Shown piece by piece: positions 2,663-50,220 of a stretch of DNA of 64,000 bases. The notes under the pieces were generated by a model that was not told the DNA's origin, ran no database searches, and worked only from the letters and a program-made list of their open reading frames with translations. Each line of letters opens with the position of its first letter. The first letter of the stretch is position 1. The DNA is from Octopus vulgaris (lineage: Eukaryota), in NCBI GenBank assembly GCA_951406725.2, contig OX597815.1:142228001-142292000 (forward strand). The letters run 5' to 3'. The translations under genes were made by a program, and so were the position numbers.

Positions 2663-2941
2663 TATTACGGAGATGTACTTGCATACCAAGTGACTTGATC
2701 TGAGATCGTGTGCTGGAACGAAAACAATTGCAGCGTGGAAGTTGTGTATAAGCCATTTAAGAAACGCACAAAAAGCGTTAGATTCACTGACAAAACTTTA
2801 TGCTGTATTTGTCAGTGAACAGGTCGCGGTCTCAAAGCGACGAAAATATTTTGACAACTTAAATTTAAATGTTGAAATGAATCTAACGGTTTTTGTGTGT
2901 TTCTTAAATGACTTATAAACACCTTCCACGCTGCAATTGTT

Positions 2942-2942
<1 letters not shown>
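2663..2942. repeat. Second fold-back element (65-bp inverted arms) between (TA)n tracts
   Basis: 2722-2786 matches the reverse complement of 2878-2942 at 60/65 positions; unrelated in sequence to the 2155-2399 element. Confidence 0.9.
2809..2857 (+). ncRNA. Minimal type I hammerhead ribozyme motif, G3:C8 variant
   Basis: UUGUCA-GUGAACA-G-GUCGC-ggucucaaa-GCGAC-GAAA-AUAU-UU-UGACAA: perfect 6-bp helix I, 5-bp helix II, palindromic loop III. Confidence 0.78.
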
Positions 2943-9968: not shown

Positions 9969-12900
9969 TGTTTATAATCGTAAGACTGTTAGGGCCATTA
10001 TAAGAATTTACTGCTCCCAAAGAGAGTGGCTTGTTTTACAATAGGTTTAAATGAAGAAATATATTTCGTATATAGCTTTATTGATTCGATACGTTATTCA
10101 GCCTTTAATGGCGGCTTTATGTTATTCTGGCGTTTGGAATTGCTATTGTAGGCATTTTATTCATCAGTAAGTTCTATATTATAACGCCTTGGATACTAGT
10201 TCCTATACGCTAGTATGTTATTATTGTATTTTACACTACATATTAAATAAAATCACAAAAATAATTATATTATAGGAGAAAATATGCATGAAAACCATTT
10301 ATATACATCATTAAACGAAATATAATACAGCTCAGAGGCAAACTTAAATATATTATCTAGATGGAAATATGCGTTTTGCATCAAGCTTAAACCTTTTCAG
10401 ATATCTTTGTTAGCTTTATAACAGTTCCCTGAAGTGACACAAGTTGTAAATTTGCAGATAAATTTAATATGGAGTTAGTTTTAGGAATGTCTATATCAAA
10501 TTATATTTCTGCCAAGGTAAATATATGAGCACTAGTAGGGTACCACTGGATCATTGATAATTGTGTTCTAAAAGTAGTAATACACAAACCTATAAGAATC
10601 CATGTGTATATGTACGTACATACGTACACACACATGCATATACACACCCGCAAACATATATACGTACATAAATGTAAGAAATCTCCATTTTACTTATCAG
10701 TATTAATGGTATACGCACACACATACATATACACACATACAGGAAAGCAAAAGACGAGGACAGCAAAAGACGAGAACAGAAACTCTAGTCAGTGTGTAAC
10801 ATGTAAAGCTAGAGAAGGGAGCGATGTTCTCCTCGTGCAAATATTAAAGGGTTCCCTCTTCTCATCACAACAAACAATAATAATATGTGTATATAAATGT
10901 ATATAATTATCTAAGCTGTCACAAAGATTATGAATTATTTTTAATATTGTCTAATCTAAATGCTGGCTCAAAAGGACGATTGATTTTCGAGTACCTCAGC
11001 CTCAAGTTTTTACGATAATATTGATAGTTTCAGTGAGAATTTGAAAACAGAAGGAAAATTTATGAAAAAAATAAGAGACACGACTTCACAATACAAGGGA
11101 AGAAAAAGGAATGTATACAAACTAGACAGATTAGTAAGGTGTATTTTGATCCACTAAACAATATATATTAGATTATTAAGTTTTAACAACAAACAAGATG
11201 TGGACAAATATCCGTCAAATATAAATAATGTAAATAATGTGCATAATTCCTCATCCCTTAAATACGGAACTGTATTATAAATTTTCACGTTTTTTCGAAA
11301 GTTTCTTTAATTCCCATTTGCATCCCGTATCGTTATCGCTTGCATTTTTAACTTTGTATATCCCAAGTTTATTCTGCTTTCTTACATTACTTATTAGTGT
11401 ATTCTCCCACTTAATTTCCCCTTCTCATTTATATTCTTATATTCATTGATATTCTTATATTCACTGATACATTATGGATTTCTTTTTTAGAGTGATTCAT
11501 AGGAGTAAGGTGTTGATCTAATTGAAAGCGCTATGTCCATGGCCAGTGGATATTTGATATTCGTTCACGCTTCCAATACCTTTGCTTTTTATTCTTTCTA
11601 TCCAGCCTTTATTTGTAGTTTTAGCTAAACTTCTTTGGACGGCAATTAGTATGAAGTGGTCATTTGAGTGATTACTTTTCATTTCATTGGGCATTTCGAA
11701 CGCAAATATGGCATTGGCTACGTCGCATTATAGGGTTAAAACTCAACTGCTGTATTTATATAAAAACCTATCCAGACAGATAATTATTTTATTCATGTTT
11801 GATTGATAACGGGCATTGCACTATGTTCTAAAATAATGTTAATAATGGCATGATTGTGTCGTATTTGATATCGTTGCGTGGCAGAAAGAGATTAAGCGTA
11901 CATCTAACTCCATAAATATGTCTATAATTATGTGCAGCATTATCACTGTAACTAGTATCTAGATTACTACCAAACGTATGGTACGAAAATAAGACGTTAC
12001 GTTGATTATAAAATTGGAAAAATTAGTATGAATGTCTTAATATTATTTACAAAGGTCGTCAGCCACTCGAAGTAACTAATGAATGTTGTTCAGGAGTTTG
12101 AATCGGCCATCAAAATGAGCACAATGTCAGGAAAATATGCCAAATCATTTTATATAGATGTAAAGTAATTAACGAAAGAGAAATTCAATAAGATGCACAA
12201 ATTAAAATAAGTGAATTACAAAAGATCCTTTCAAATAGCAATTCAGGTTAATGTAACTAACAGGGCGGAGAACATAGAAATCAATAAAAAGAAGTTAATT
12301 TAGAATGATTCCCGCGAAAACATTATAGGAATGTAAAAACAAACAATTCACTCAAACTGAACAATGAGTTAATAGGTATAATTTTTCTAGCAATCAAATG
12401 GTATTTTACAGCAAAAACAAATTATATTGGACGTTAATTCAATTGACGAGCTGGGATAAGAAAGCAAGAATATACTATTATGATCTGAATCCATCTCTTT
12501 AACTTTCATAGAATTAGAATTTTTTGGCACCACATTAATATAAGTCGATGCCTAACACAAATTACAAACGAACAACAGTCTGGAAAAATAACTAGAAAGA
12601 ATAATTTGGAAACCAATTACCATAGAAAGGAAACAAGAATAAAAACATTTTCACTTATAACTAAAAAAATGCAGTGTAATCTCGAGACTATCTATGCTCC
12701 AAATTTCCGTGGTAACAAAACTGTACGAAGAACGTAAGTCTCAGAAAGAGATGTAAATTGAAATTGAATTTGAAGAGGTAATAAACAACAAATGAAAGGT
12801 AAACATTTTGCTTTATCAAATACAAGCAATATGGAGTATTATTCAGCGCATCAATGACTAAAATCTTTCGACTAAATGACAACTGGAGACATTGATATTA

Positions 12901-15699: not shown

Positions 15700-18130
15700 C
15701 ATAATTATACTTAGGGTTTAGCAAAATTGCTTCACCACTTACCACTCAGGTGGTATATCTGGTTTTGATTAAATTCGTCCAGATTCTGTTTAAAGGTAAT
15801 AGGATCCTTTTTCCCCTTTGATCAATTTTGGGTCATTGTTAAACTGGGCAAGGCCTGTTGAAGAAAAGAAATTGTGTTGCAGTGTACCTATATATTTTGA
15901 TCCTGAATTGGGCAGGAGACGTATGGCCCGTGGTCCCAGCCTTGGATGAACCTTGTAGCTAATGTCCTGGTCGTTTGGATAATGATGGCGGTATATTCTA
16001 CACGTCGTGCAAATAATGTAACGCCAAAGACGGGGCTGGAGGTAGTAGAGTTTCAAGTCTTTAAGGTGGTCCCAGTAATCGAGGTATGTCATGACCTTAA
16101 TTCGTTTAATGAATGCCCTCTGGGGTGATTTAATTTTCGAGATGTTTTGTTTTGTAAGGGGAGACAACAGGGGGCAGCAGTATTCGAGATGTGGCCGTAC
16201 AAAGGAGGAGAAAAGTGTTCACTGGACCGGAAGGTTCTTAATATCCAGCAGCTCATCCAACGAGCTATATTGACCTTATTGTTGATGTGGGCACTTTAAC
16301 GGAGATTGTTATCAACAATTATTCTTAGGTCTCTAATATTATTAGATACTGTGAGCGGTTCCCCTGAATGAAGAGAGTAGGGCTGTTTTAGTATAGTATT
16401 TTTTCCAAAGCCCAAAAGCTCAAATTTTCTCTCGTTTAGTTGCATTTTGTTTTTGTCTGTCCATTGACTCACTGAATACATATCAGACCGGAGTTGAGTT
16501 CGGTCTTCTTCATTGATGATTTGCTGGTGCTTAGTGTCATCAGCAAATATTTTCACTTTCGAATGTTTTACGACGTTGGAAAGGTTGTTTATGTAGATTA
16601 TAAAGAGGAGTGGGCCCAAGATAGTCCCCTGAGTGACACCCACTGGTGACTTTTGCTGTACTTGGGTGGACTCTATCGACTACAACATGTTATGTTCTAT
16701 TTACCAGGAAGTAATCTATCCAGTATAAAAGTTTTCACAGATTCCAACATTTGCCAATGGTCAACCCCTTTGAACGCTTTACTGAAATCAAAATATATGA
16801 CATCGTATTTCGAACCTGTTCCCAAGGCTTTCAGCATATACTCAATGTGGTGTAAGAGCTGTGTTAGACAGTCCCTGACACAGCGGAAGCCATGCTGATT
16901 TGCATTTAAGAGTTTGTGAATCTCCAGGAAGCCAGCTATTCTTGATCTGACCACTCTTTCAAACACTTTAGTGATGTGGCAGGTGAGTGAGTTTGGGCGA
17001 TAGTTGACTGCAAGGGATCTGTTTCCCTGTTTGAAAACCGGGCTGACAGACTGGGATAGGAGCTGTTTCGGTATATTAAATGGGTCTAAAGAATTTCTCC
17101 AGAGGGTGGTCAGAGGGACTGCTAGTTGATGTCTACATTCCTTCAGGAGACTAGCTGGGAATCTATCAGGGCCTACGGCAGAATAGTATTTGTCCTCGTT
17201 TATTGCTGCTATGATGTCTGAGGCAGTGAAGGTTATGTCAAAGATTTTATGTTGGGAATCAACTTCGTTCGCTTTTCTTACGCCAATATCAGTGGGATCA
17301 TTAAAGACAGAACAGTACTGTTTCTGCAGTATTTCCGTCATTTCTTTAGCATCGTGTTGGGGAATGCCGTTATCACTGATCAATAGCCCAATGGGTGAAA
17401 CATCGGTTCTATGCTTATCTGCGTAAGAATAGAACACTTTTGGGTTCTGTTTGATTTTTTTTTATTACCCACTGTTCCTCTGCAGCGCTTTCATTTTCAA
17501 TGGAGGTTTTCATGTCGGCCTGCAGACGAAGTTTTTCCAACTCTAGACTTTTCATTGTTGTTGAATGTGGATGTTGTAAAAGGGATTATTTTAATTGGTT
17601 GATTTTTTTATTGAGTCTTTTGATGCGCCTGGAGAGTGTTTTGTTTCTTTCTAGGGAACCGGTTTCTTTTCTGTTAGTGGATTTCCTAGCAGCGTGTTTT
17701 GAGCATGTATAGGTGACACTGTTCTCAAAGTGCTGCCATGCAGTCTCAATGTGAGTGGAACAGAGAGTGGCCGTTTATGTTATCAAATAAGTGCAGTGGA
17801 GTGGGATTGGCTGGTTTGGTTTTGATATGCCAGGAATTAAAATTGCAGAGTATCATTTCGTTGACTGAGAGGAGAATTTATTCCACTGAAATACAGTGAA
17901 CGGAGCTAGAGTGATTGGTTAATATTAGATCCAAGATTGTTTTATTCTGTCTTGGTTCGAGTAGCAGCTGAGTCAGGAAAAAATTATCAATTAGATTAAA
18001 GAGTAATACTGCTGCTGCATTTTCTGATGTAGAGCATTTGCCTAACCTCAGAATAATTGTGGGCCAGTTTATCTGAGAGAGGTTAAAATCACCCATCACT
18101 AGTGTTTCCGGAGTTGTATTTTTGGAGGAA
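15700..18130 (-). mobile_element. Disrupted CR1/L2-group-like LINE (APE C-terminus + RT)
   Basis: ORF pieces GDFN...LDLILTN (endonuclease), NYRP..LT, DFSKAF, GVTQGTILGPLLF, IFADD, HPRLGPRA; several frameshifts; same family as 61780-64000. Confidence 0.93.
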
Positions 18131-22486: not shown

Positions 22487-23594
22487 AAAGTTTGTTTGGT
22501 AAAGCACGTGGGTGAATATATAAGAAAATAGTAAAGAGTGAAAAAACGACAGAAGGCTTAAATGTTAAAAAATATATATATTTGCGTCAAAATGTCTGGA
22601 GAATATTGGAAAAAATTTTTTCCCTCCTTAAAATGACATAATTTTATAATTTTTAAAGAAATACCGGTTTCGCAGTTAGCTCTTCAAATTTCTTGTGACT
22701 TAATGTTTATTTTTAATAACGTAATCCTTGTATTTTTGCTACGGAGAGTTCTAAATAAGGGAAAGTAGTGAGTGATTTCTTCCGGTGTAAGGGAGATAAT
22801 CGCTTAAAAAAATTTTTTTCCTTTAGTGTGAATTTCTCTGTATTATTGAGTTCGGATAGTTGAGTCTGGGTTTGTACTTTCCAATGAAGAATGTTTCCTT
22901 ATTTAGTCTAATTTGTGATGATGATCCGAAAGCACATTGGTAAAATGGAAATATTAAAAATTGTGGTTGTAGTTGCTTTGCGCATTTCTCAATGTGTTCA
23001 CTAAAAGGTATCATTCTATATTCTGGGAATGCAATCTGTTGTCGATGCAGTGTGCATCTACGTCTGAGTGATAGTCCCGTGGACCCCACGTAGTCTTGGT
23101 GGCAGCCCGAGCATTTAATGACATAAATTATGTTTTCAGAGGCACAAGTAAAGTTGGATTTGATCTTGAATTTCTGTCCCTCTTTAAAGAAGAATTCTGA
23201 TCCTTCCAATAGTTTAGGACATGTTGCACAGTTCGATCTACCACATTGTTTTACTTTTGCATCCGTAATTTTAGAAGACAATTTTGCCTTTGTGAGAATC
23301 TTTTTAAGTGATTTAGGCTGTTTGTAGCTTTTAATGATTTGGTGTATGTTTAGAATTTCCTTTAATTTGGGATTTTTATGAAGTATTGGTAAATTCTGGG
23401 TGATGATGGTGAAAGCTTCTTTGTTTCTGGGGTTGTATGTAGATATGTAAGGTAGTATTTTCGGGGAAGGTGTGTTGTTGTGTTGAACTTTTCTTAAAGT
23501 TTCTATGTTGATTTCTGTTGCACGTCTGATCCCATCCTCTATGAGTTGAGTTGGGTAATGTCCTAACCTATTGGAAGGATCAGAATTCTTCTTT
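22484..23594 (-). mobile_element. 5'-truncated Penelope-like element (RT thumb, CxxxxCxxC linker, GIY-YIG endonuclease, 3' pLTR)
   Basis: ORF 22823-23599 contains CGRSNCATC, FTCASENIIYVIKCSGCHQDYVGSTG..LRRR..LHRQQI and ETFFIGKYKPRLN; 3' end abuts (TA)n. Confidence 0.92.
22656..22694 (-). ncRNA. Minimal type I HHR motif in PLE pLTR (U3 variant or degenerate)
   Basis: AAGAAA-U-UUGAAGA-GC-uaacu-GC-GAAA-CCGG-UA-UUUCUU, ~130 nt after the PLE stop codon and on the same strand. Confidence 0.72.
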
Positions 23595-26500
23595 GACAAT
23601 TCTGAAAAGGGAGGATTAACTGGTGTTTAACTAGTGTAATTATGGTTCATTAATATATCGTAAATATTCCCTCTATACATCGTTATTCACTGCCAACATC
23701 ATCTTCATTTAACTCTTGATTTGCTGCTAGTGAAACATGGCCTGTCTTGCTGCTGTTGGTTAGGAACGAATTAATCTTCTCTTGAGGCATTGCTTTAAGC
23801 ATTCCATTAAAGTGTTTATATACCATAGTGTACTCCATCATGTTACATGTATGGATAGGGCACATGTATTATATGGAGAGTCGGTGAGATACTAACTGGT
23901 GCATTGTCTTACATCGAAATAGTTTAGTCCAGCTCAGAGTGATTCCAAGTATATTATATTCCATCTAAAGTGTCACACCATGCATCAGTTCTGTTATTTT
24001 TTTCTGTTATATATATCATTGTTTAGTACAAGTGTACTTTACAGTACACATTATTCTAATATATGATATTGCTTATATTTTCCAATGCTGAGTTCTTCGC
24101 CAGTTTTGTAGGCGTTGCGGTCCTACTGTAGTGAATCCAGATTTGAAACAAATATTGAGTATGGTCAGCGTTAAACTTGCTATTGAAATATTCAGGTGAT
24201 CTTCACAGTAATGTTTCAGACGGAAGTTTCTCGGCTCGAACTAATTGGTCAACAACGTGTATAGGTCTAATCACACCCACTGCCCATATGCATGTACGCA
24301 TGAATATATATTTATATCTAAGCATGTATATGTGGGAGTGTAGATTTTATGACATAGAATATGTAACAATATAATCTAGATTATGTATGCTTTGATAGAG
24401 ATTAAATGCATCATACATTGAAGCATATTGTGACATGCATCAGATGATTTCCGTCTGCTTCAATTTGTTGTTGGGCAAGATTATTATGTATATTTAATGT
24501 TCGTGAATTGCATAGAAAAGAAAAACAACGGGGACATAAATCAATATGGTAACTAATTATAACCTATATAAAAGATCTAACAAAATAGACGAAACAATTA
24601 CGAGATGTCAAGAATAAAAAAAATTGTTGTCGCAATTACGCCATGGTAATACCCGTTAATTGAAAGACATTTTAGTTACAGTCTTGTACTGTATTCATTT
24701 AGATACTGTAGGAGTGCAACCACAAAGAAATACGTATTGTATATTCTGAGATAATTACATGTGTCTTTCTTTGTATCCATACCATGCAAATAGAATAATA
24801 TCGACTAATAACTTCGTTTTACACACCTGTACGCGAGGCGATTGTGGCTGTATCATTATCGTTACTTTCGAAATGTTTTTTCTTATGCCGCATATATTCC
24901 TCTCCTATTGACTAATTGTTCTTGAAATATAGCTGCTACTGCTATACATACAATAATAGAGATATAATACACAGTAATGGAGACTACTTCAACGTAACAA
25001 AATGTTAAATTTTTGCAGCAAAACTTATATTCAACAAATTGCCATTACATGAAATAGATATTGTCATTTATACCATACTTATTGTACATTGCAAAAGACC
25101 ACCGATGTTTTATGGGTTCTACTGACAAGATCTGTAAGTGCACAAGGCTGTTTGTAATCTGTAAAAAATATTCAGGTGGTGATCGCTAATGTTTGGCGTT
25201 ATATACTGCAGGTTCTGTGCAGAAGAGAAAATACTAGTACATTCTTTACTTTCTCGCAATTTCACAGAGACTGATCAACGAAACGACTACTATTAACTGT
25301 TCCTTCTAAAACCTCTTCTCGACAGACTGAATCTGATTCAAATGTTAGCTTGTTTTAGATATGTCAGGTCAGAAGTCTGGTTTGCTAATTGATCCTGGAA
25401 CTTTCAGCTTGGGACTCAAGCTTGATAAGTATCATGTTTTCAAACAAGTTATATGGCAGACATGGCTGAGCGATCAAGAGAGAAGTCTTTCCATACGCTT
25501 GATAACTGTTCAGTTTAAAATTAGAGATAATGCTGTTTTTTAACTCACTGCAACTCCAAGAAAATGCGCAAGCTTTTCCTTTTCCATAAAATTGTTCAGA
25601 ATCCAAACCTGTTCTACTTATCAACCATGAATTTTCTTCGCAACGTTAATGTGAATATAATGGTTGTAATATTGATAGCAATACAAATGCGATGTTATGG
25701 CATCATTATCAGCGCTTAAATGATTAGTTTCTTGCATATGATCATTTGTATTGCCTAGATTTGAAGGTTCTTTTAACTGATGGCATCGGGAATCGGAATT
25801 TACTTACTGTTTTAACACCATGTTTTTGCTACTGTCGACTGCCTGTTACCAAAATATAACGAAATGATAGCTCTGCAAACCAGCCTTCTGTTGCAAACAA
25901 AATTTAAACAGTTTATCACAAAAATGCACTTGAAATATAGATAATAATATATTTTTCTTTCATGGTAGAAGTACCCTTCGCAGGTTGTACCAAGCAATAA
26001 TTTTTGGGCATCGGTCACGTTTGGAAAAATCATTCTCTTGATGTGCAGCAATGAAAGAAAGTTCTTTGGCATATAGTTAGTTGTCTGCAATTAACCAAAA
26101 ACAGGTAATCATCTCAGGTATTGTCGACAATATAGTGTAATTCTGAATAGTGACTATCCAGTCGAGGTGAGAAGCATTCCAAACGATTAAAGTCACTTCA
26201 TCAAGAATTGTACATCACTGACTTAACAGATAATGCAAGATATGTCCTTTCTCAGATAGATAAGAATTTTCTCTTATTGCCCACGGATTCACGGATTCCC
26301 TTTTTCTACACTCATAATCAATTAGCTCAGAGCCCACCACGACCAAAATACTCACCCATGTAATGACAAGATCTTTTTGAACAAATGTTGCTCTGGTCAG
26401 CTGACTCTATAAGTTAATCGATTCCGCTTTCGAATGCGGCGAACAAAATTAGATTATTTCTTACTCATATCGCTCACTGTTATATATAAACTGCAGGGGA

Positions 26501-32918: not shown

Positions 32919-33020
32919 GATCGTTCCAAGATGTAAGTACACGTGAACTGTTGGTGATTTGTTTTTTCGGGTTTTTTTTGCCTCCTTCTTCCTCTTATTT
33001 TGGACTTTCCTATGTCTCTT

Positions 33021-33050
33021 GTTTCTGAAGAAGAGCTTTGCTCGAAACAG
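33021..33050 (+). ncRNA. Partial HHR motif (canonical core, 3' strand lost) in a short (TA)n-flanked element 32916-33160
   Basis: CUGAAGA-A-GAGC-uuu-GCUC-GAAAC; no UH or helix I 3' strand follows. Confidence 0.5.
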
Positions 33051-33680: not shown

Positions 33681-33900
33681 CGTGTTTGTGTGTCTGTGTT
33701 TGTCCCCCCACCCAACATCGCTTGACAACCGATGCTGGTGTGTTTACGTCCCCGTAACTTTAGTGGTTCGGCAAAAAAGAGACCGATAAAATAAGTACTA
33801 GGCTTACAAAGAATAAGTCCTGGGGGCGATTTGATCGACTAAAGGCGGTGCTCCAGCATGGCCACAGTCACATGAGTGAAACACGTAAAAGAGTAAAGAG
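33456..33900 (+). mobile_element. Full-length tRNA-derived SINE with internal (TA)n
   Basis: ggcgtaggagtggctgtgtggtaag...ggttcagtccc...; tail ggcggtgctccagcatggcc...gtaaaagagtaaagag. Confidence 0.85.
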
Positions 33901-33904
33901 TATA

Positions 33905-35431
33905 CAGACAGGCATACACAGGCCCTGACGGCATACACCCACGGGTTATCAAAGCGTTGGCTCCGGTCATCTGCGAGCCCTTAACACGACTATTCAATAT
34001 GTCATTGGCGACGGGTGTTATACCTGCAGACTGGAGAACAGCGATAATCTGCCCAATTTTCAAGACAGGGAGCCGCGAAGACCCGCTTAACTACCGACCG
34101 GTTTCCCTTACATCAATAATCAGCAAGATGTTCGAAACCATCCTTAAGAAAAGTATGATGCTCCACCTCCTAAACACAGCCTCTATCTCTGATTCCCAAC
34201 ACGGCTTGACCAACTTACTAGTAATGGAAGAATTGGTGACGCGCATCCTCGATGATAGTGATGCTGTTGACATCGTTTTATTGGACTTTGCCAAAGCTTT
34301 TGACTCGGTAAACCACCGCCTATTACTTGTCAAGCTTCAAGCATATAGTTTCCATCCAGATATTATACGATGGGTTGGTGCCTTCCTCTCAGATCGCTCC
34401 TTCCAAGTCCAAGTTAATGGTTCGCGGTCCGACGTCTCCAGTGCGAGCAGTGGCGTGCCTCAAGGTTCAGTGCTTGGGCCCTTGTTGTTCTTAGTCTTCA
34501 TAAATGACTTGCCCGACGACCTCACGCAACACACCCTTCTATTTGCCGACGATATCAAACTGGTCGCTCCTCGCGGTAATATAGAGGATCTTCGTTGATG
34601 CCTTCACCACATTTGGAAGTGGTCTAACGATTGGGACCTGTGTCTGAACGTGTCAAAGTGCTGTCATCTGCCTGTCGGCTCTACTCCTGCAACTCAACTT
34701 GATTTCGAGCCGGGTCGTCTGCTGCTGGAGAGGACCGATCAGGTAAAGGACCTGGGGATCTTGGTGGATTCCTCCTTTTCGCCTTCGGCCCAGTGCGTCC
34801 ATGCTGCCAGCAAAGCACGCGGAATTCTGTTCTTGATTCGACGGTCATTCGGAATGCTCACAGCAGCCATATTCCTACCACTCTATGTCACGCTGGTGAG
34901 ACCCATATTGGAGTATGGGATTCAAGCCTCTCCTCCTTATCTCCTCAAAGACATACAGCATCTCGAAAGAGTCCAGAAGCTGGCTACCCGCATGGTTCAT
35001 GGTCTCAAAAATTTGTCCTACGAAGAAAGGCTGAGGACGCTCGACCTTTATTCTCTTGAAAAACGCCGCCGCCGTGGTGATCTCATTCTCGCCCACAACA
35101 TCATAAGCGGAAAGTGTAACCTCTCGAAAGAGCTGTTCTTCACTCCTGCTCCAGAGCGTCGGCTGCGGAGTCATTCCGAAAAGCTCTACCTGCGACGATT
35201 TCATCTCAATCGAAGGAGAGGAGCTTTCTCTGTCCGGGTTGCGGATCCGTGGAACAAGCTGCCAGACGAGATGGTGAAGATGCCGACGACCGCTTTGTTC
35301 AAAGCCTCCCTGGACCTCAAGTGGCCTGAACTCTTTACATGAACACCACCCTGTACTTAACACCATGTCCCCCTACATGGCCTTGCTATTTGCTTTTGAG
35401 CCAAATTAACTAACTAACTAACTAACTAACT
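33905..35431 (+). mobile_element. 5'-truncated CR1-group-like LINE with (TAAC)n tail
   Basis: GPDGIHP, NYRPVSLTS, DFAKAFD, GVPQGSVLGPLLF, LFADD, RPILEY; ORFs 33957-34598 and 34650-35342 share a frame across one TGA; short deletion after QHG; tail (TAAC)n at about 35407-35431. Confidence 0.95.
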
Positions 35432-40770: not shown

Positions 40771-41262
40771 CAGAGAGAGAGGGAGGGAGTGTGAGAGAGA
40801 GATACACAAATACAAGTGCGTGTCGGTGTGTGTGTGTGTAGATGTATGAGTCTACATACGATGTATAAACACTTTGAATAAATTAATACGCAATTTCAAA
40901 AGTTCAATCTTAGGCATAATTGCATGCGAACGATTTCAAAAGATAAACGTTTCCAGATAATGAATATTTTCAGAATATCTCGACGTTAACATGGAATTAA
41001 ATTTTGGTAGTTGTTTCTGTTTGCATACCCAAAGAATTAGCTATGTTCGTCTCTGCGTTATATTCGAAGCTAAATACGTTTTATCAGGGAAACCAGAAAA
41101 GAACCAAAAAATAAAGACCATTGATGTTATTTATATTTGTGTGTGCATATGTGTGTGTTTGGGTATTCATGAATATTCGTCGTTTTGTGTCAGCCATACA
41201 TACAAACATACATACATAAGTAATCGCAACTATTATATATCTACATATCCAAACCACCACCA

Positions 41263-41344
<82 letters not shown>

Positions 41345-43564
41345 GTATACAAAACGATCAAACAATAATAATTAAACAAGCAGATAAAGGTGGTGCAATT
41401 GTTAGTATGGATACCGAATACTATAAGGATTTGGTTGAAGACCAACTGAAGGATACAACCTTCTATTGTGAAATACCCGCAAATATAGACCACCACATCA
41501 TGAAAAAGATCAACAACCTGATCTCAACACACCACAACTCACTTATGGATAATGAAAAATACTACATCACCAATTTCGAACAAAAACCCAGCAACTTCTA
41601 CGGCTTACCAAAAATACACAAATCAAAAAATATTCAACAGACAGTAAAAGAACAAGAAAGTGAGTACATAAAATTATTACATCCAAAAGACCTAAAACTT
41701 AGACCTATTATAGCTGGTCCAGCATGCCCTCCACACCGCCTAAGCAATTTTATTGACATTGTTTTGAAACCACTATGTACTTACATACCAAGTTTCATCA
41801 GGGATGACATCGACTTCCTGTCCCATCTTCCCAAAACAACAGAAACAAATTCAGTTTTACTAAGTTTTGATGTGGTAAGCCTCTACACCAATATTCCACA
41901 CGATTTAGGAATAAAGGCGATTAAATACTGGTTAGTAAAACATAGAGACGTGATTCCCAGCAGATTCACAGTGCCATTTATATTAGACACAGTCAAACTT
42001 ATTCTAGAAAATAACACATTCTTCTTCAATGGAAAGAATTACATCCAAATTAGAGGCACGGCGATGGGAACGAGGTTTGCTCCCGTTTACGCCAACTCTG
42101 TAATGGGATACTTAGAACAACAACCCTACCAAGAGGTGGAGGTAAACTATGGCACTGGATTTAGAAAATATATTGAAAAGGCATGGAAGAGATACCTAGA
42201 CGACTGCTTCATAATCTGGACAGAATCTCTAAATACTCTGAAAGAGTTCAATATCCTCCTGGACAACCTACACCCATCTCTCCAATTTACAAAGGAGATG
42301 AGTAGTACCAAATTACCATTCCTGGATATAATGGTAATTAAAAAAGACACCACCATCACCACAGATATATACTATAAACACACAGACACACATCAATACC
42401 TAAATTTTAAGTCGTGCCATCCACCACATACAAAACGTAACATCCCATACTGCCTAGCCTGAAGAATTTGTACCATTGTAGAAGATGCAAATATCAGGAA
42501 CAAACGCCTAATAGAACTAAGAGAATTTTTGCTCAAACAAAAATACCCATCTCTACTTATAGAAAATGGCATACAGCGGGCTATAAAAATACCCATACAA
42601 CAACTTAGGACAACCCAAGGAAGAGGAAAACAAGAACAAGTCATACCATTCATAGTGACACACAACCCATGTCACCAGAATATCTTCAACATTGCCAAAG
42701 CAAACCTACCAATCATAGCCCAAAGTAATGAATTAAAAGACATAATCACGGATCGAGCTATGGTGCTTAGTAAAAGACAGCCTAAAATCTTGAAAACATT
42801 ACTAACAAAGGCAAAATTTGACCTCAGCAACATTCACGGTATCAAACCAAACATTCACGGTATCTAAATGCAATGATAGCCGATGTGGCACATGCCAATT
42901 CATACATACCGGTCAATATATAAACACAAAAACCGGGAAAATATTCACAAACGCGAATATGAACTGCAAAAGCAGAAATTTAATTTACTGCATCAAATGC
43001 CCAAATTGTGAAGAAATATATGTAGGTCAGACGGGAAACGCACTATTAGAACGCTCACGTGTACACCGGCAACAGATTAGAGACCCAGAGGTCCGTCAGA
43101 TACCTTTGAGTAACCACCTAGCAACATGTGGCCGGAAAATGTATATAATATTTCCGTTCTACAAATTACACAGCCCAAGTGAAATCGAGAGGAGAATCAG
43201 AGAAAAGAATTTTATTGATAAATTCGAACCCAAGCTAAATAAGCAATAATAATAATACTTAGAGGTATTACTTCCACTGCTACGACCATGACCACTAACA
43301 ACAACAACAATACTAAAGGTGATCAAGATGAAGATAGCAGGAAAATTATCTTATTTAGGGTTAAAAGTTCTATTGCCACCACCATCACCACTAGCAACAA
43401 TAATTAAGGTGCTGACAATGATGATGATGACAATTGAAATATAAAAATATAAAAATCCCTGACAAAGGATATTTACAACATTTCTAAAAATAACCCAACA
43501 ATTGCTGCTTCGGCCAGGGTCAATATACAGGACTCTTGACATGTCCAACAAAGCGTGATGCCTA

Positions 43565-44110: not shown

Positions 44111-44156
44111 GACACCTACAGAAGGCTGGATGGTATATCAGCCCAAACGTTGTGTT
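44111..44156 (+). ncRNA. Degenerate HHR relic
   Basis: GACAC-CUACAGA-A-GGCUG..CAGCC-CAAA-CG-UU-GUGUU; helices retained, core mutated; downstream 44165-44226 recurs at 11193-11262. Confidence 0.5.
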
Positions 44157-45489
44157 AACAGCAGACAAGATGAGGACAAACATCCGTCGAATGTAAATAA
44201 TGTACACAATTCCTCATCTCTTAAATATATTAGGGTTTAAAGGTACATCAATTTTACCTTATCAGAAAGCAGCATTTGGAAGCTGGCATTTTCAGCATGA
44301 ATGTTGTCTATCACAAAATGAAATCAAAATCAAACAAAAGCGAAGCATTACAACGACTAAAGTTGTAAGAATTCCTTAAGTTTGAATGTTTTAACGAATA
44401 AAGTCATATGATACGGTTGAATAAACATGTAAATAGATTTAAAAGGAAAAAGATCGTCAAGGGATTATTTTGTGAAAAATTACACAAACTTGGCCTGATC
44501 AAGAGGCCTATCTGTCAGGGAAGTCATGGTCTGACATGGGATATATATATAAATTTATATTGAAGCATTCTATTGTAAAAAAAATGCTCGACAACGGCGG
44601 GCTATTCACGTATGGAAGAAAAGGAATAACATTATCTTTAGTTTTATTTTCTCAGAACGTTGGTTATGTTTTAATAAATCTTAATACGGTGATTTGAAAA
44701 CAAATATAAAAACCTTTACCTTTTACTTCTTAGTTTTACATCTGTTGTTGGATATACTGTTAAAATTTTGACTGAGCATACGATAGTTAATACACTAAAG
44801 CGAATGCGTTAATTAATAGGTAACTTTTTTTTTTATTCGCTGTTCCGTTCAGTAAACACTTTCTCTCTCTCACTCTGTCCTTGTCTCTCGTTCTCTCTCT
44901 CTCTCTCTCTCTCTCCCTCTCTTTGCCGGTCTACTCCTCCTACCTGATATTAGCAAGCCTCATTACAACCTTACAATCCTTGCACCCTTCTCATTTTATC
45001 ATATATTATCTCAACCCATATCAGAAGGGTGGATTATCGGTCCTTACTGAAACCTAATTCGTCTATAATTTAACTGGATATAAGTTTAAAATGTCTCGTG
45101 AAGGTTGGTTCACTGGTATAGGCAGCAGCATAGTAAAAAACGTAAAGGCGGACAGAAAGTGCCATTATATATATATATATATATATATATATACTCATGG
45201 CCAGTTGCTAACACGTTTGTAGCATTGTAAGGGTAATTTACACTCTATTTCTGTTTCAACAGCAGATCTGGGTTCAAAAAATATCTTTCTTATTTGTATC
45301 ATACTACGATCATGTCGACGCTTCTATTAGAAATAAATATTTGTTCATATTTATACACATATGTTGCACACACACACATACACACACACATATGTGTTTG
45401 TATTAAATAAATGTGTGTGCGTTAAATAAAATGAGACAACAAAGCCAAGGCAGTATGTAATTTTTAGGACTTTTATAAAGTGAAAGATA

Positions 45490-49044: not shown

Positions 49045-50220
49045 TATACACGTCGTAGGAATAGCAAGGAATAACTTTATTCATCAACGTATGCACCCAT
49101 ATTGCCAGTGCACTTTAACATTTCAGCGGTAGCTTGTCCAGCATGGAACTGTAAAATCTTGGAAGGCTTGCTTTACAGCATCGTCGGAATTAAATTTTCC
49201 CTATCAAAATGTTATATAAATTCTGGATGAAGTGGTGGTCAGTGGGGGCAAGATCAGCGGAGTATGGTGGATGATGGAGAACTTCCAACTCCAACTTCTA
49301 TAGTTTCGCCGATGTCATTTGCGCGATGTGTGGTGTGAATTTGTCTTGCAATAAAACTGGAGTAGATTTGTTGACCAATCTAGGCTGTTGTTACAACTTT
49401 CTGCATCATTTGGTCCAGTTGGCTGCAGTATACTTCGGCCTTGATTGATGAGTCAGGTTCAATGAAATCATGAAGGACCACACTTGCGCCAGACCACCAA
49501 ACACATACCGTCAGCTTCGTTTGATGAATTTTGCCTTTTGGACTGTTTTAGTAGCTCGTCTTTATCCAGCCATTTTGGTGAACTTTTACGGTTGTTGTTT
49601 TAGATTCATTTCTCATCACATGTTACAATTCGATTAAAAAGTTATTCGTTTTGCTATTTCTGATTTTCATTGAATTCATATGGAGCCCAGTTATCCAAAT
49701 TTTTCACTTTACCGATTTGAACTAGGCGAGTAAATATATTTTGCTTGCTAACACCAAACAACAACGATAATTCACGGGCACGTTGAGGTGGATCTGATTC
49801 AACGGTGGCTTTCAGTTTGTCGTTACCCACCTTTGTTTCTAGTTGACCGCGTTGACCATTTGTGAGGTCAAAGTTACTAGAACGAAATTTTGCAAAGCAA
49901 TTTGATGCTGACTGCGGTGTAATAACAATAGAATGAAATAGTCCATTAATATTCCAAGCTGTCTGGCATGCTGTATTTCCAATAAAGCACTCATATTTCA
50001 AAACTGTACGAATTTCCGATTTATCCATCTCTAAACAAAAATAGCAATAAAAGATTTATAGATGCTTTATGAAGCGCAAAATGAGTTAGAATAAGAAAAC
50101 AAATGTGTCCGCTTTCTCACAAAATATAAAGAGTGTCACCATATAATAATGGCGCTAAATGAGAAGCTGTCAAAGTTTACCATATACCTTAGTAAAAATG
50201 TCCTACTTGACCTAATTTAT
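49045..50220 (-). mobile_element. Mariner (DD34D) transposon relic
   Basis: MDKSEIRTVLKYE HTH region, WAPYEF (WVPHEL), IVTCDEK, HHPPYSADLAPTDHHF; stops and frameshifts; TIRs decayed. Confidence 0.9.

Follow-up and report, generated by a model that had tools for sequence, protein, structure and literature searches.

The window (the whole 64,000-nucleotide stretch of Octopus vulgaris DNA that was analysed) contained a minimal type I hammerhead motif with a G3:C8 core at positions 2809 to 2857 of the forward strand, which was recognized from the sequence, by a relaxed motif scan and by its predicted fold. Helix I was formed by TTGTCA (2809-2814) and TGACAA (2852-2857), and its first strand was followed by core positions 3 to 9, GUGAACA (2815-2821), with G3 at 2815 and C8 at 2820, and by an extra nucleotide after A9, a G at 2822. 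Helix II (2823-2841) had five base pairs, GTCGC (2823-2827) with GCGAC (2837-2841), and enclosed a loop of 9 nucleotides that differed among subfamilies in the copy alignments. The remaining segment (2842-2851) consisted of GAAA (2842-2845), a one-base-pair helix III with the self-complementary AAUAUU, and the triplet U16.2-U16.1-U17 (2849-2851), with the predicted cut after 2851. This layout, including the 6-bp helix I, the extra G and the UUU triplet, was the one described in the first-pass annotation of the window. The 49-mer was predicted to form both helices I and II (-12.9 kcal/mol, z -2.4), the descriptor, the fold and the covariation all gave the type I order of these helices around the core, and GAAA and the NUH cut site were both present in the window motif and in the family. 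A strict descriptor, which required 6+5 Watson-Crick pairs and a pair at 3/8, had one match in the window and none in 60 Markov-resampled windows. The literal CUGANGA core was absent; among 68 core-spanning copies, 57 had GUGAACA and none had C3. An Rfam search of the window reported no hammerhead, a result that was uninformative here because canonical C3:G8 sisters, included in a search of three loci, also had no Rfam hammerhead among the best 150 of 183 matches.

A 10-nucleotide palindrome (2843-2852) spanned helix III, as had been annotated, and it was conserved across the family. Its full length could not serve dimerization, however; only the inner six nucleotides (2845-2850) were pairable in an active dimer, the outer letters were core, cut-site and helix I positions, and the usable duplex was very weak (about -0.2 kcal/mol).

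The motif lay in the right arm of an inverted insertion, a 5'-truncated end piece of a Penelope element without a tail (2807-2942, forward strand) that also included the position of the family ORF start codon (2908-2910). The left inverted arm (2665-2805, reverse strand) came from the same element but had lost its ribozyme in a deletion between a pair of AGTGAA words (joint at 2783-2788). Its stretch 2785-2797 pairs, in the right arm, with the core and helix I. The Penelope 'tail' of about 57 nucleotides, which encodes the N-terminus of the family ORF, was found only in the left arm (2665-2721, reverse strand). The insertion target was a TA-rich microsatellite on the left flank (2643-2664) and (TA)n on the right (2943-2960). 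The predicted probability of helix I was 0 for window-copy RNAs starting at 2780 or earlier, and helices I and II of an ORF-bearing copy were predicted with probabilities of 0.8-1.0. The folding models thus suggest that the window copy is probably inert, misfolded through the upstream inverted arm.

Two other motifs in the window, at 33025 and 44116, had been cited in support of the extra nucleotide after A9. Both proved to be unrelated and broken, the former without the UH step and the 3' strand of helix I, the latter with a CTACAGA core and CAAA, and the relaxed scan of the window recovered neither. They represent truncated, decayed hammerhead motifs of other families (33020-33050 and 44112-44158, forward strand). 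A weak hammerhead-like match with a CTGAATA core occurred at about 10050-10105 (reverse strand). The window also held a Neptune-like Penelope ORF, nearly full-length and split into three pieces, with RT and GIY-YIG (41224-43249, forward strand), which was considered as the ORF of the present family and rejected, being 25% identical and thus of another family, and the 3' part of another Neptune-like Penelope ORF (22823-23626, reverse strand). The stretches at 15790-17461 (reverse strand), 33897-35342 (forward strand) and 49654-50055 (reverse strand) are presumably fragments of LINE-type RTs and of a mariner-like transposase.

The 17-mer around the G3:C8 core had 6,746 exact copies in the source genome (2.80 Gb). 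These made up the G3:C8 share of 7,447 flanked-core matches; 279 others had a different base at position 3, and 422 had G3 with a different base at position 8. A sample blind to the core was drawn with a downstream anchor, which had 8,694 matches; the first 100 listed yielded 95 distinct copies. Sixty-eight of these spanned the core, with G3 in 64, C8 in 63, both in 61 and C3 in none. When 30 upstream-anchored loci were added, the enlarged set, which overlaps the first, contained 91 spanning copies, of which 83 were G3:C8 and again none had C3. Since there were 6,746 exact copies and 83 of the 91 core-blind copies were G3:C8, damage to one copy is excluded and G3:C8 is a family trait. The exchange of C3 and G8 relative to CUGAAGA, as first annotated, therefore characterizes the family, while its sisters are C3:G8; GUGAACA and the helices, whose loss among copies had been named as evidence against the motif, were conserved. 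The UUU triplet was also the family state. Twelve copies with G3:G8 were inspected as a candidate intermediate subfamily and resembled ordinary young-family copies, which lends that idea no support.

Contigs under four organism labels contained the family and its 5' boundary; differences there were apparently readable from about 31 letters inward of the end, a range that does not reach positions 3 and 8. RNA reads from organism B (3 runs of one study, about 6% of reads), showed that the family is transcribed on both strands. No major change at position 3 or 8 was seen among the variants listed, although one unlisted C>G could be C8, and there were no piles of read ends in this type of library, which cannot reveal a cut.

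Seven C3:G8 matches among the first 100 listed with another base at position 3 all came from a diverged sister family, whose downstream sequence is homologous to that of the flipped family. A young sister had 1,312-residue ORFs (54% identical), many of them near-identical, and, counted with its relatives, gave 4,320 pattern matches. Its core was C3:G8 in all 23 copies parsed from 30 fetched, so that position 3:8 was a Watson-Crick pair in both families, G:C in 83 of 91 copies of one and C:G in 23 of 23 of the other. In the young sister (L225:2590-2750, minus strand, and L299-L328), 20 of 23 copies had C rather than A at position 9 of the core. Pairing of this C9 with G12 could inactivate the ribozyme, and the clade is able to spread with a damaged core. 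Another family was older and more decayed, with a median divergence of 0.19 against 0.07 in the young family. When it was sampled with positions 3 and 8 unconstrained, G3:C8 was found in 12 of 19 copies and C3:G8 in none; N7 and loop II differed from those of the young flipped family. A further diverged sister family (L039, L041, L049, L078 and L079) had C3:A8, U3:A8 and U3:G8 cores among its old copies.

A tree of the downstream sequence separated 25 rows of the flipped clade from 18 rows of the canonical clade with a support of 100/100; it was midpoint rooted, its branch lengths are rough, and its input took in some flank that is not homologous as well as an unrelated row (L248). Given this split and the C3:G8 state of other hammerheads, one flip on the stem of the flipped clade is the simplest reading, and the flip likely happened once, to judge from the sequences compared.

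The helices covaried among the young families. Pair 10.4 of helix II was G-C versus A-U, pair 15.2-16.2 of helix III was A-U versus G-C and one pair of helix I was U-A versus C-G, with G-U forms of the covarying pairs in other subfamilies. Of 500 shuffles, which take no account of kinship, one matched the covariation score. Shared variants were concentrated in loop II, where they affected 6 of 9 columns, as against 1 of the 42 remaining ribozyme columns (p 3e-5), and the single one outside the loop was a G-U wobble. Conservation of the ribozyme columns was not significantly better than that of the flanks, either within the young family (1/42 versus 7/102, p 0.44) or between the old and young families (4/32 versus 40/162, p 0.17). 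The flip is real and family-wide and looks compensatory, in a known kind of ribozyme.

Position 17 was U in 89 of 91 copies of the flipped young family and C in none; U17 was counted by eye in 18 of 19 copies of the older flipped family, and C17 was present in 15 of 23 copies of the young C3:G8 sister. In the relevant part of PMC3884650, the poor activity of G17 ribozymes is put down to a C3-G17 trap, and a G3-C8 variant is noted to perform less well with C17 than with G17. Mirrored, that trap predicts that G3 should avoid C17, and U17 of the UUU triplet may be what permits G3. This link is a lead, since a single evolutionary event underlies it and canonical Penelope hammerheads among the PMC4209133 rows commonly have U17; a listed oyster Penelope hammerhead there also has the UUU triplet.

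Copies of the family were 150-210 bp long, often in inverted pairs, and lay in TA microsatellites, with two classes of 3' ends about 58 nucleotides apart. Inverted 5' copies, a one-sided tail and microsatellite targets are traits of Penelope-like (EN+) elements, and the one-sided tail is described as a Penelope signature in the sections of PMC8557442 and PMC11167929 that bear on it. One copy (L222) had an open frame of 1,025 amino acids with an RT plus GIY-YIG at the C-terminus; profile matches were E 2.6e-5 for GIY-YIG on a 97%-type copy and weak for RVT_1 (E 0.052) on a fragment. An ATG 92 nucleotides after G3 opens a frame resembling the N-terminus of the sister family, which argues that the tail is the start of the ORF and that the motif lies in the 5' leader. 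The family appears to be a Nematis-like Penelope element, on a comparison by eye with printed rows rather than an RT tree: the linker resembles the printed Nematis rows, and the Nematis clade, as set out in part of PMC8557442 (Craig 2021), shares the C-terminal GIY-YIG after a short CX3CxxC linker, the TA-microsatellite targets, the inverted 5' copies and the one-sided tail. A head-to-tail array of a 166-bp G3:C8 end piece was found at L298 (G000:C2:17912000-17913100), and the six units seen at its end all had GTGAACA. A non-LTR retrozyme, which would consist of non-coding head-to-tail repeats with an extended hammerhead, was rejected, as the copies are single or inverted, the element bears an ORF and the one array includes TA flank.

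The 5' ends of the copies indicated how they were made. Thirty-six of 95 copies started within three bases of one point, 20-22 nucleotides before G3, and 1 of 95 started within 3 nucleotides of the predicted cut site. At the fixed 5' end the template has C, and the copies often had a non-template G; of 1,945 matches, the first 100 listed comprised 65 with G, 25 with T and 10 with A. Upstream of this base the sequence was not shared among copies, and the inverted arm could explain the G in 7 of 21 inspected cases. The G may reflect cap copying, as in other retroelements. Read in this way, the G implies that the templates were capped and uncut, and we infer that the short copies were made from such RNA. 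Capped, uncut templates fit the internal initiation and dispensable cleavage reported in the pertinent part of PMC11167929. Cutting is no part of making short copies, and occasional cutting is still compatible with these ends; starts at the cut site might be scarce because cut RNA is uncapped and so perhaps never copied. A branch-point-like and acceptor-like stretch lies just upstream of the fixed 5' end (L222:2464-2520, minus strand; L167-L196) and has 526 exact copies. A spliced exon 1 behind the fixed end is possible but was set aside, as the flanks before the G were unshared and no matching donor was found.

The closest relatives are the metazoan Penelope type I hammerheads of Cervera and de la Pena (2014, PMC4209133), which share the terminal-repeat position, the extra nucleotide after A9, G10.1-C11.1, a tiny palindromic helix III with the geometry of the D. 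virilis row, and elements in inverted pairs and mostly truncated single copies. The extra nucleotide is general among them (54 of 56 rows in Fig. S3) and so gives no special support. The difference is that G3 occurs in none of the 56 listed representatives, where natural covariation at 3-8 comprises U3-A8 (2 rows) and one U3-G8, and the descriptor given there would have missed G3:C8. The U3-A8 variants of Perreault (2011), the only natural variant named in the portion of PMC3088659 consulted, likewise covary at the 3-8 tertiary pair; U3-A8, however, takes two transitions with a U-G intermediate, whereas G3:C8 takes two transversions with no paired intermediate. The identical swap has been engineered. 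According to the available parts of these papers, it alone was active among double mutants of the CUGA region (Roberts 2023, PMC9901934) and C3G/G8C partly rescued a Penelope hammerhead that needs the protein of its element (Frangieh 2024, PMC11167929); those are laboratory mutants, whereas here a high-copy family has G3:C8 naturally. No natural G3:C8 was found in the literature searched, including the passages seen of PMC6765202 and PMC11014351; coverage was partial and an earlier report is possible, above all in Lunse 2017.

We favor, with a probability of roughly 0.6, the reading that the motif belongs to a Penelope family with G3:C8 in place of the C3:G8 of its sisters, and that in intact elements it would still cleave itself, weakly and conditionally, the window copy being predicted inert. 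The flip would have arisen once, through an inactive intermediate that could survive because insertion does not need cleavage, and U17 would have permitted it by avoiding a G3-C17 trap. Transcription would start about 23 nucleotides upstream of G3 and place the ribozyme in a capped 5' leader. Cleavage would depend either on a second copy, supplied by the 3' repeat on that transcript, or on the protein of the element, and its effect would be to decap or trim the RNA. [quoted passage not shown] A chance look-alike or a decayed single copy can hardly be credited: the missing Rfam hammerhead in the window might speak for it, but Rfam equally missed the canonical sisters, and the thousands of copies, the core-blind samples, the clade tree and the empty resampled windows refute it.

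Several observations would suit a catalytically dead or irrelevant fold, with helices kept for protein binding, translation control or inheritance and the flip a founder effect: 1) the C9 sister is young and has many near-identical long ORFs, 2) the ribozyme columns are not significantly better conserved than the flanks, 3) the copies derive from uncut RNA and 4) insertion in vitro did not need cleavage, in the experiments seen of PMC11167929. This explanation is nevertheless rather unlikely. The sole two changes in the invariant core hit the tertiary pair and restore its Watson-Crick pairing, the swap is the one that kept activity in the data seen of PMC9901934, G3:C8 persists across old and young families, and helix III stayed self-complementary. 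That the flip is neutral, the motif cutting as well as canonical Penelope hammerheads and tandem transcripts giving unit-length or circular RNA, seems more doubtful still. The long persistence of the clade in the tree, the good predicted folding of the ORF-linked copy and the existence of the 166-bp array would fit, but the engineered swaps rescue only partly (PMC11167929, as far as seen), the copy ends are not piled at the cut site, and TA flank forms part of the array unit, a sign of amplification at the DNA level. Within the favored reading of a weak, conditional ribozyme, a bolder version is possible though less probable than the reading itself: evolution may have crossed a two-transversion valley to give the first natural G3:C8 hammerhead, locked by U17 and tuned as a self-decapping switch in the Penelope mRNA leader, with the A9C sister as a second, independent attenuation in the clade.

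The family confirms the C3-G8 tertiary pair in nature and at high copy number, and does so in the only direction found viable by laboratory scans. Such families escape searches that insist on CUGANGA, and hammerheads have therefore probably been undercounted. In this clade a single scaffold with open ORFs offers matched variants from nature (C3:G8, G3:C8 and A9C), and this set makes the purpose of Penelope hammerheads directly testable. Three direct copies with a G3:A8 core, 3.4 kb apart and with no ORF between them, were also found at C2:171.24 Mb (L197, G000:C2:171239233-171246114), where they are likely a local duplication.
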